Shown: piece after piece, positions 10,884 through 11,097 of the stretch
How the letters are laid out: each line of letters starts with the position of its first letter
Numbering within the stretch: the first letter of the stretch is position 1
DNA from: Escherichia coli
GTDB taxonomy: Bacteria > Pseudomonadota > Gammaproteobacteria > Enterobacterales > Enterobacteriaceae
Direction: 5' to 3' (one strand)
Length of the DNA stretch: 64,000 nt
Assembly (NCBI RefSeq): GCF_045037415.1
Contig: NZ_CP173438.1
The notes under the pieces: generated by a model
What the model saw: only the letters and a program-made list of their open reading frames with translations
The model's database searches: none
What the model was told of the DNA's origin: nothing
Made by a program: the position numbers and the translations under genes

Positions 10884-11097
10884 GTTTTCTCTCTTCAGGC
10901 GGGTGATTTATCATTGCCAGCGAATGAGGGGCTGTATTACCTTTATAAAGGCTTTACAGCCTCTGTTTTATAACCGCCTCCGGTTCACCGCATTGCTTTC
11001 CCTGTCCTTCTCCCCTGATGTTTTCTAAAGCAGATTAAAATCGCCGGGCCTGCATTTCTCACAAACTGTCTCCGACAACATAACGCGGGACAGCAAA

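Follow-up and report, generated by a model that had tools for sequence, protein, structure and literature searches.

A probable Mor-dependent late promoter and a separate conserved element between the G-like and I-like genes of a BcepMu-type prophage in Escherichia coli

The late region and the G-I intergenic gap

The window analyzed here is a stretch of 64,000 nucleotides of E. coli DNA, the left 29 kb of which is a transposable prophage of the BcepMu type (Bcepmuvirus). From the holin gene (ATG at 3626) onward, the late genes are all on the + strand, and Pfam assigned them to holin, transglycosylase, terminase, Mu-type portal, Mu F, Mu G (PF05069), capsid, tail chaperone and gpW/gp25. Because the left edge of the window falls within the leftward early operon, the window includes neither the transposase genes nor the activator gene. 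With positions 10300..11500 of the window as the query, Escherichia phage PhiKM was 100% identical over the query, and Klebsiella phage KP12 was ~88% identical. Sequences resembling the gap region were present in 638 of 5,426 complete E. coli genomes, one of which is an O25b:H4-ST131 isolate. The prophage copy in strain 510016 is truncated by insertion sequences.

The genes on either side of the gap, and the gap itself, are as follows.

10425..10883, + strand: G-like ORF (PF05069, E = 4.9e-23)
10884..11097: whole G-I intergenic gap, 214 bp, its position kept in relatives
11098..12213, + strand: I-like protease/scaffold ORF

With the last base of the G-like ORF at 10883 and the first of the I-like ORF at 11098, the gap spans exactly 10884..11097 (214 bp). 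The initial annotation had given the same boundaries and had described the gap as non-coding, in agreement with the poor conservation of the frame of a small ORF within it (see below) and with an Rfam scan of the entire window, which returned no match inside the gap. It had also pointed to a 130-bp gap at 3496..3625 before the lysis genes, which indeed lies upstream of the holin ATG at 3626, and to an otherwise tight coupling of the late genes. The remaining late genes do overlap or abut, with few gaps longer than 50 bp; the only further ones are at 16915..17011, 17348..17504 and 23288..23341. The gap at 17348..17504 is presumably the frameshift region that separates the genes for the tail chaperone and the tape measure.

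A scan of genome contigs with the I protein yielded only four loci, and the useful relatives came from IMG/VR viral contigs and a phage collection. A G-I gap of 202-284 bp was present in KP12, E. coli G5, S. diarizonae, Symbiopectobacterium, BcepMu and others. Its length is 202 bp in BcepMu, 250 bp in Pasteurella AFS-2018a, 234 bp in Pseudomonas Komp_PAO1_1 and 284 bp in Chromohalobacter YPCBV-1, and the gap of Mu measures 196 bp. The gap is no accident of this prophage copy and is a constant feature among its relatives.

A composite motif in the late gaps and the predicted promoter P_I

A search of the I gap and the lysis gap for a shared motif, which the initial annotation had suggested, revealed a composite motif common to both, consisting of a TTAA-N6-TTAA dyad, 23 nt and an nAnnnT -10 hexamer. 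In the lysis gap it reads TTAACGCGCTTTAA, 23 nt, GATGCT, then GTCTCC, and in the I gap CTAAAGCAGATTAA, 23 nt, CAAACT, then GTCTCC. The pattern YTAA-N6-TTAA-N27-CTGYC had 4 matches in the 64-kb window against 0.02 expected from shuffles, a count that is partly post hoc because the motif was first spotted by eye in sequences that were later counted. All four matches are on the + strand and in late intergenic gaps. Because of the post hoc element in the window count, two further checks were run, with a looser pattern and with a weight matrix that excluded the window.

The looser pattern (dyad, 23 nt, NANNNT) was scanned against the + strand of the window and of 13 further loci. Matches were confined to the orthologous lysis, I, tail and baseplate gaps, apart from one at 37930 of the window, outside the prophage. 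The matching sequences came from E. coli, Klebsiella, S. diarizonae, Symbiopectobacterium, an environmental contig and BcepMu, and since these relatives are homologous, their agreement in the motif represents conservation and not independent discovery. In BcepMu, all four orthologous gaps carry the looser pattern. The nAnnnT hexamer stands at a fixed spacing from the dyad in 33 sites. The weight matrix was built from non-window sites alone and scanned over both strands (128 kb); the four window sites scored 25.9-28.2 bits, and the next best match 17.3 bits. The site in the I gap is described below, and the predicted sister promoters, with starts predicted near 3607, 16991 and 23342, are the following.

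3558..3600, + strand: sister promoter P_lys, before the holin gene (dyad TTAACGCGCTTTAA at 3558..3571, -10 hexamer GATGCT at 3595..3600)
16942..16984, + strand: sister promoter before the tail assembly chaperone gene (dyad at 16942..16955, -10 hexamer CATACT at 16979..16984)
23293..23335, + strand: sister promoter before the gpW/gp25-like baseplate gene (dyad at 23293..23306, -10 hexamer AATACT at 23330..23335)

The matrix scan also gave two candidate sites of the promoter type on the minus strand. The element heads several late units, with four sites on the + strand in addition to these two candidates. The initial annotation had named the I and lysis gaps as candidate promoter gaps, and both carry the motif; it had overlooked the predicted tail and baseplate promoters and the possible ones on the minus strand.

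The promoter predicted in the I gap, P_I, consists of the following parts.

11025..11038, + strand: predicted Mor-family activator site, dyad CTAA-AGCAGA-TTAA, at approximately -49 to -36 (28.0 bits with the non-window matrix)
11062..11067, + strand: -10 hexamer CAAACT, with A11063 and T11067 invariant
11074 (± 1 nt), + strand: predicted transcription start, placed from the position of the -10 hexamer

Close to the gene, an alignment of 11 distinct gaps is invariant at the dyad bases TAA.G....TTAA.A (11026..11040) and at A11063, T11067 and G11068. Within CAAACT, A11063 is the second base and T11067 the sixth; they correspond to the two defining bases of sigma-70 -10 elements, -11A and -7T. Pairwise identity is 0.97 among close relatives and 0.82 among all 11 sequences for the dyad, 0.88 and 0.66 for the -10 hexamer plus discriminator, 0.63 and 0.48 for the spacer between dyad and -10 hexamer, and 0.50 and 0.40 for the middle of the gap.

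CAAACT is a recognizable sigma-70 -10 hexamer, and the -10 hexamers of the promoter set are weak (3-4 matches out of 6). The -35 position reads AATCGC, and a -35 hexamer is absent. A scan of the gap for sigma-70 consensus promoters found none on the + strand, and a minus-strand match at 11104..11077 was judged to be due to chance. The start was placed by assuming 7 nt between -7T and +1, and with +1 at the predicted 11074 the dyad is centred at -42.5. As measured by eye, the dyad centre is 35.5 bp from -7T here, compared with 36.5 bp at Mu Pmom. The four late promoters of Mu have -10 hexamers and lack -35 hexamers, and Mu C binds a 16-bp imperfect dyad centred at -43.5 (PMC2582627). At Mu Pm, the inverted repeats for Mor lie within a 16-bp element that is likewise centred at -43.5 (PMC4390567).

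The activator was sought in relatives. One Mor-family protein (PF08765, E = 1.3e-43) is encoded by the complete relative prophage L066, which is inserted in gspL of E. coli M9682-C1; the gene for this protein is the last of the leftward early operon and adjoins a GemA homologue. BcepMu has the same arrangement, with the Mor/C gene gp01 beside gp02. H2O2 induces the whole BcepMu early operon, up to and including the Mor/C gene, as a single unit in B. cenocepacia J2315 (PMC2830190). Uninduced dRNA-seq and the H2O2 microarray of J2315 yielded no late-promoter information. The uninduced dRNA-seq lists no start in the BcepMu gp31-gp32 gap, as expected of a silent late promoter, and gives no positive support. 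Because no activator gene falls within the window, the present copy may be without one.

The region 11020..11097 is very probably a Mor-dependent late promoter for the protease/scaffold gene, with predicted activator binding, activator dependence and start site. It has every property of a Mor/C promoter that can be examined in sequence, and is predicted to work like Mu P_I. An equivalent of Mu P_I in this gap had been proposed in the initial annotation, and the proposal is supported, comparatively and computationally, by the specificity of the motif, the Mor/C-type anatomy, the conservation as far as BcepMu and the activator found in relatives.

We propose the following sequence of events. Upon induction, the leftward early operon would produce the single Mor-family activator, from a gene beyond the left edge of the window. 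The activator would bind the dyad CTAA-N6-TTAA at approximately -49..-36, and bring the sigma-70 RNA polymerase of the host to a promoter with CAAACT as its -10 hexamer and no -35 hexamer. Transcription would then proceed from near 11074 into the protease/scaffold and capsid genes. Since the lysis, tail-chaperone and baseplate genes are each preceded by the same design, transcription of the late region would be divided among several units under common control. The single Mor/C protein suggests a two-step early-to-late cascade.

Two other accounts of the gap were weighed against the late promoter. The gap could be a terminator plus spacer, and the motif a repeated element related to termination or packaging, with no promoter present. 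Terminator-like hairpins do occur in the gap, and in the tail gaps of both the window and BcepMu they directly abut the dyad; the -10 matches are also weak. We consider this account improbable, because the motif is always oriented toward the next gene, the distance to the nAnnnT hexamer is exactly 23 nt with the A and T invariant, the motif lies downstream of the hairpins and not inside them, and it fills almost all of the 54-bp baseplate gap. Still less probable, to the point of being nearly dismissed, is that the gap encodes a small protein or a small RNA. An ORF of 41 codons is annotated in KP12, and the same frame is open in the window from GTG 10903 to 11028, but a 1-nt deletion within the most conserved block breaks the frame in the L037 group of relatives, in BcepMu a start codon is missing and a stop codon lies just upstream, and the C-terminal halves show no relationship to one another. 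For want of a conserved frame, the small ORF was rejected. Against this account also stand the lack of an Rfam match, the lack of a start in the BcepMu gap in the J2315 dRNA-seq, and a fold z-score of only -1.55 for 10850..11020.

The late-promoter explanation covers the downstream third of the gap (~11020..11097), and does not cover the hairpins and the conserved element upstream of it.

Hairpins and a conserved element, motif A, upstream of P_I

A promoter of this kind needs ~75 bp of the gap. The G-I gap is ~130 bp longer than that, and other late gaps are compact (54 and 97 bp), made up of a terminator-like hairpin directly next to the dyad. The upstream part contains the following features.

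10866..10893, + strand: weak terminator-like hairpin that overlaps the G stop codon, with GTTTTCTCTC after it (found by consensus scan only; its conservation is confounded by coding)
10927..10972, + strand: hairpin followed by UGUUUUAU, a candidate intrinsic terminator of the lysis-head transcript, which encloses motif A (centroid structure, terminator-like match)
10940..10957: motif A, CCTTTATAAAGGCTTTAC, alternating CTTTA/TAAAG pentamers, one copy per phage genome
10965..11019: poorly conserved pyrimidine-rich spacer (identity 0.50 among close relatives, 0.40 among all 11)

The hairpin at 10927..10964 has stems of 10 bp and 4 bp, and is stronger than the hairpin over the G stop codon. Its outer stem is present in the window, KP12 and BcepMu, and absent from the L007 and L037 groups. 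The intrinsic terminator consensus had 2 matches against 1.0 expected, and the U tract is not conserved in KP12 and L007.

Motif A is present in a single copy, which always lies at the midpoint of the genome, with G on one side and I on the other. Its 16-mer TTTATAAAGGCTTTAC occurs once each in the window, the complete relative and BcepMu, and is identical to that of BcepMu at 16 of 16 positions. The motif takes the form of a near-perfect 23-bp palindrome in relatives from Burkholderia and Pseudomonas, and in some relatives this palindrome reads GTAAAGCTTTATAAAGGCTTTAC. Among the viral-contig matches listed with a Mu-like context, motif A lies 61-97 bp past the G stop codon and 64-83 bp before the P_I dyad. 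Exact matches in unrelated, mostly low-GC phages, which made up half of the 80 listed, were judged to be due to chance. The initial annotation had treated the gap as a promoter site, very probably correctly for its downstream part, and had missed this separate conserved element, which the promoter does not explain.

Known site types were compared with motif A and rejected. As a standard Mor dyad, motif A scores -2 to -5 bits with the promoter-dyad matrix, and no -10 hexamer stands at the promoter spacing on either strand. Inspection by eye of the IHF-like candidate TATAAAGGCTTTA showed that the conserved C is missing and that the L037, Komp_PAO1_1 and Ralstonia versions do not retain the match; a Fis-like match was likewise sought by eye in motif A and was not found.

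Motif A could, as a tentative reading, be the binding site of a regulatory protein, namely the Mor-family activator (for which it would be a second and atypical site) or some other DNA-binding protein of phage or host origin, and the bound protein might modulate termination or read-through of the lysis-head unit, or the activity of P_I. The 16-mer is identical in E. coli and Burkholderia phages although the flanking G and I proteins of the window and BcepMu are only 44-50% identical, and the core CTTTATAAAG is retained in Ralstonia and Pseudomonas phages. Read on the minus strand, motif A (GTAAAGCCTTTATAAAG) departs from the BcepMu dyads (GTAAAGCCGATTAAAAG) at just two of the specified positions. 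Its location within a terminator-like hairpin, and its constant placement between the G stop codon and the P_I dyad in Mu-like contexts, are also consistent with a bound protein. The low scores with the promoter-dyad matrix argue against a Mor-family site, the variable distance to the P_I dyad (64..83 bp) argues against cooperation in a fixed phase, and the IHF and Fis comparisons argue against these two host proteins.

The central strong gyrase site (SGS) of Mu helps the prophage ends to pair for replicative transposition. The gap or its motif-A half might be the counterpart of that site, possibly coexisting with the promoter as it does in Mu. In Mu, gyrase is annotated as cutting at 17879/80, within the G-I gap, 20 bp past the G stop codon and upstream of P_I (PMC2628397). 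Here too the gap is near the genome midpoint (50.8-51.4% in L066, 50.7-51.3% in BcepMu and 50-50.7% in Pasteurella AFS-2018a), although this central position follows simply from the conserved gene order. The ~130 bp of extra DNA, with its single-copy conserved element, also fits such a counterpart. A Mu-type site is further expected to have an arm with phased anisotropic flexibility. In A/T periodicity, the window gap ranks in the top 0.4% of positions and the Mu SGS's right arm in the top 0.5%, and phased TTAAA arrays occur at the same place in more distant relatives, as in the Mu right arm; BcepMu reaches only the top 4-5%, which is no signal.

Comparison of the sequences themselves did not favor a gyrase site. 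A W/S template of the published gyrase consensus failed the Mu positive control and was discarded. Too few sites were available to recover the exact published gyrase matrix, and an approximate E. coli gyrase matrix was therefore obtained by ridge regression on 428 published site/score pairs (PMC6379681) with the W3110 sequence (cross-validated r = 0.80). This matrix placed the Mu SGS 7th of 28,589 positions. The best score in the window gap was 4.5, at rank 1255 of 28,871, and no conserved high-scoring gyrase site was found near the gap in relatives with the approximate matrix. Local alignment to the Mu G-I gap matched 10 of 11 core bases, an outcome that was not significant (at least as good in 334 of 1000 shuffles), and GCGGGTGATTT, which is common to the Mu gap and this gap, is a hairpin arm in the L037 group. 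According to a review, the Mu SGS could be replaced only by the site from the Sakai prophage of E. coli O157 (PMC10052514). On the basis of these five tests (template, alignment, periodicity, matrix and review), we regard an SGS counterpart as unlikely.

A further inverted repeat overlaps P_I.

11066..11093, + strand: inverted repeat CTGTCTCC ... GGGACAG (MFE -10.7 kcal/mol, z = -4.0)

Its 5' arm occupies -8..-1, upstream of the predicted start, and its 3' arm lies over the Shine-Dalgarno sequence GGGA (11087..11090). The same hairpin design is found at P_lys, P_I and P_tail of the enterobacterial phages, at P_tail of BcepMu and at P_I of the Pasteurella phage. The arms differ by promoter (GTCTCC/GGAGAC, CTGTCYCC/GGGACAG, TGCYCTG/CAGGAGCA, GTGTGCTC/GAGCAC and GCTATTC/GAATAGC), and the MFE z-scores of the set range from -1.5 to -5. 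RNA started at the promoter would not contain the 5' arm, and the ribosome-binding site is therefore predicted to be hidden only in read-through RNA. At the remaining promoters, the start codon is 6-8 nt past -7T, from which leaderless mRNA is predicted. These are the baseplate promoter of the window, P_I and the baseplate promoter of BcepMu, and P_I of a Ralstonia phage, Komp_PAO1_1 and L050. For the window baseplate gene, the ATG at 23342 coincides with the predicted start, so that its mRNA, too, should be leaderless. We infer that the hairpin and leaderless designs would both tie translation to initiation at the late promoter.

Two speculative readings follow: motif A may be a cis site specific to the genome centre of BcepMu-type transposable phages, and the late promoters may allow translation only of their own RNA. 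Taken together, these readings are conceivable, with the odds clearly against them. The role of motif A may be SGS-like without a gyrase motif, for instance through a bound phage or host protein that aids the pairing of the ends or links replication with late transcription.

Significance and comparison with known systems

We know of no description of late regulation in this group of E. coli prophages. A Mor/C-type late promoter belongs to a known class and is expected in Mu-like phages; the recognition sequence, the single activator and the target genes differ from those of Mu. The predicted activator site TTAA-N6-TTAA and its four to six target promoters provide a testable regulon map for a group of Mu-like phages, which would span phages of Enterobacteria, Burkholderia, Ralstonia and Pseudomonas, and point to a divergence of Mor/C recognition sequences between phage groups. 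The conserved central motif and the promoter-coupled translation would be possible new biology, if confirmed.

In its upstream part, the gap resembles the Mu SGS in lying near the genome centre between G and I, on the G side of P_I, and in its A/T-rich palindromic elements. It differs in that there is no significant sequence similarity to the Mu site, and that the approximate gyrase-motif score is low here.

The inverted repeat at P_I recalls the fold-back inhibition of IS10 transposase translation that was reportedly described by Davis, Simons and Kleckner in 1985. In both, the 5' arm lies upstream of the element's own start and the 3' arm over the ribosome-binding site, so that the hairpin is possible in read-through RNA only. 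The designs differ in that the one here is predicted only, and is situated at phage late promoters, the others of which are apparently leaderless.

The late promoters of P2 and P4 are activated by the zinc-finger proteins Ogr and Delta through a TGT-N12-ACA element near -55. They resemble the promoters predicted here in being activator-dependent sigma-70 promoters that head late operons, and the tail genes of the present prophage are P2-like. Neither the TGT-N12-ACA element nor a zinc-finger activator is present here.

The closest parallel is with Mu. Mu P_I occupies the same genomic place, between the G and I homologues, and has the same -10 hexamer, CAAACT, with the -35 hexamer absent in both. 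The Mu late promoters also have an imperfect dyad ~43 bp upstream of the start, as predicted here. As with the C-activated Mu promoters P_I, P_lys, P_P and P_mom, several copies head late units and an activator of the Mor/C family would act on them. The dyad sequence differs, TTAA-N6-TTAA here compared with TTAT-GCCCCA-ATAA at Mu P_mom, and the dyad centre is 1 bp closer to the -10 hexamer than in Mu. The promoters precede the lysis, I, tail-chaperone and baseplate-W genes here, and lys, I, P and mom in Mu. Regarding the activator, the Mor gene and Pm of Mu provide the model: Mor is encoded at the end of the early operon beside the GemA homologue, exactly as in the relatives of this prophage. 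No middle operon or second activator of the kind that Mu has was seen. With one Mor/C protein here and two in Mu, a two-step cascade is predicted in place of the three-step one, and in contrast to Mor at Mu Pm, the Mor-like protein would drive the late structural genes directly.

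Start codons and inverted repeats at the predicted late promoters

At several predicted late promoters, the start codon lies only 6–8 nt past -7T, the last base of the predicted -10 hexamer. This spacing was found at 23330..23344 in the window, at 18812 and 30774 in BcepMu (L064), and in three further relatives (L069, L068 and L050), and a Shine-Dalgarno sequence is absent at these sites. The combination of a close start codon and no Shine-Dalgarno sequence predicts leaderless mRNAs, judging from sequence, for the gpW-like gene of the window and for the I gene of the Burkholderia, Ralstonia and Pseudomonas relatives.

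The discriminator (-8..-1) pairs with the Shine-Dalgarno sequence in predicted hairpins at 3601..3621, 11066..11093 and 16984..17006 of the window, and at orthologous sites. Each promoter has its own arm sequences, with z-scores of -1.5 to -5. These hairpins may exert fold-back control over read-through RNA.

A separate, short G+C-rich inverted repeat brackets the -10 hexamer in several promoters, such that the hexamer would occupy the loop. The arrangement reads, for example, GGGGGC-AATACT-GCCCCC or ATGCCGTC-CAAGAT-GACGGCAT, and the repeat was seen at the following sites:

BcepMu (L064), 11485, 18812 and 30774: G+C-rich repeat flanking the -10
Window, 23320..23341: G+C-rich repeat flanking the -10
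L069 (a further relative): G+C-rich repeat flanking the -10

The Mor homologue, gyrase-motif matches and a probable second mobile element

The Mor homologue of the complete relative prophage in E. coli M9682-C1 (L066:1849-2238, minus strand) carries QGKLF near its C-terminus, within ...RMQGKLFADEPD..., which looks like a QxxLF clamp-binding motif. Such a motif fits a report from 2026 on the use of the beta sliding clamp by Mor/C proteins. Decayed copies of the window's prophage are present in some genomes, including that of E. coli 510016 (L063; NZ_CP025851.1, 800-830 kb), in which IS100 lies within the small terminase gene and IS1 takes the place of the early region. With the early region replaced, this copy has no Mor gene, and its late promoters would thus be orphaned.

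When scored with the approximate gyrase-motif matrix, four of the top five sites fall within 150 bp of each other (12620..12769), inside the major capsid gene of the window. Relatives do not share this cluster, so base composition probably explains it. TTAAA arrays, spaced 10–11 or about 21 bp apart, occur in the G-proximal halves of the G-I gaps of distant Mu-like phages:

Pasteurella AFS-2018a (L067), 651..900: TTAAA array
Chromohalobacter YPCBV-1 (L070), 617..900: TTAAA array
Mu (L065), 9885..9925: TTAAA array

Rfam matches to STnc130, isrK and C4 antisense RNA (45114..45248, 50477..50551 and 50587..50674) suggest that the right-hand part of the window holds a second mobile element, unrelated to the prophage.

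Candidate late promoters on the minus strand

Two dyads in the window are followed by -10-like hexamers on the minus strand:

3558..3571: P_lys dyad, symmetric; second -10-like hexamer, CAGGAT, at 3534..3529 (minus strand), with the same 23-nt spacing
2169..2156 (minus strand): dyad of 17.3 bits, rank 5 in the window in the dyad weight-matrix scan; CATCAT at 2132..2127, at promoter spacing

CAGGAT sits upstream of a 242-aa P-loop ORF (2767..3495, minus strand, ATG at 3495), and the minus-strand arrangement is kept in S. diarizonae (L006 2627..2614). Given its symmetry and the 23-nt spacing on the minus strand, the single P_lys dyad may serve two divergent late promoters.

Downstream of the dyad at 2169..2156 is a gene for a Dam-like DNA adenine methylase (ORF 1218..2072, minus strand), and the dyad may belong to a late promoter for this DNA-modification gene. 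The candidate promoter is reminiscent of P_mom of Mu.
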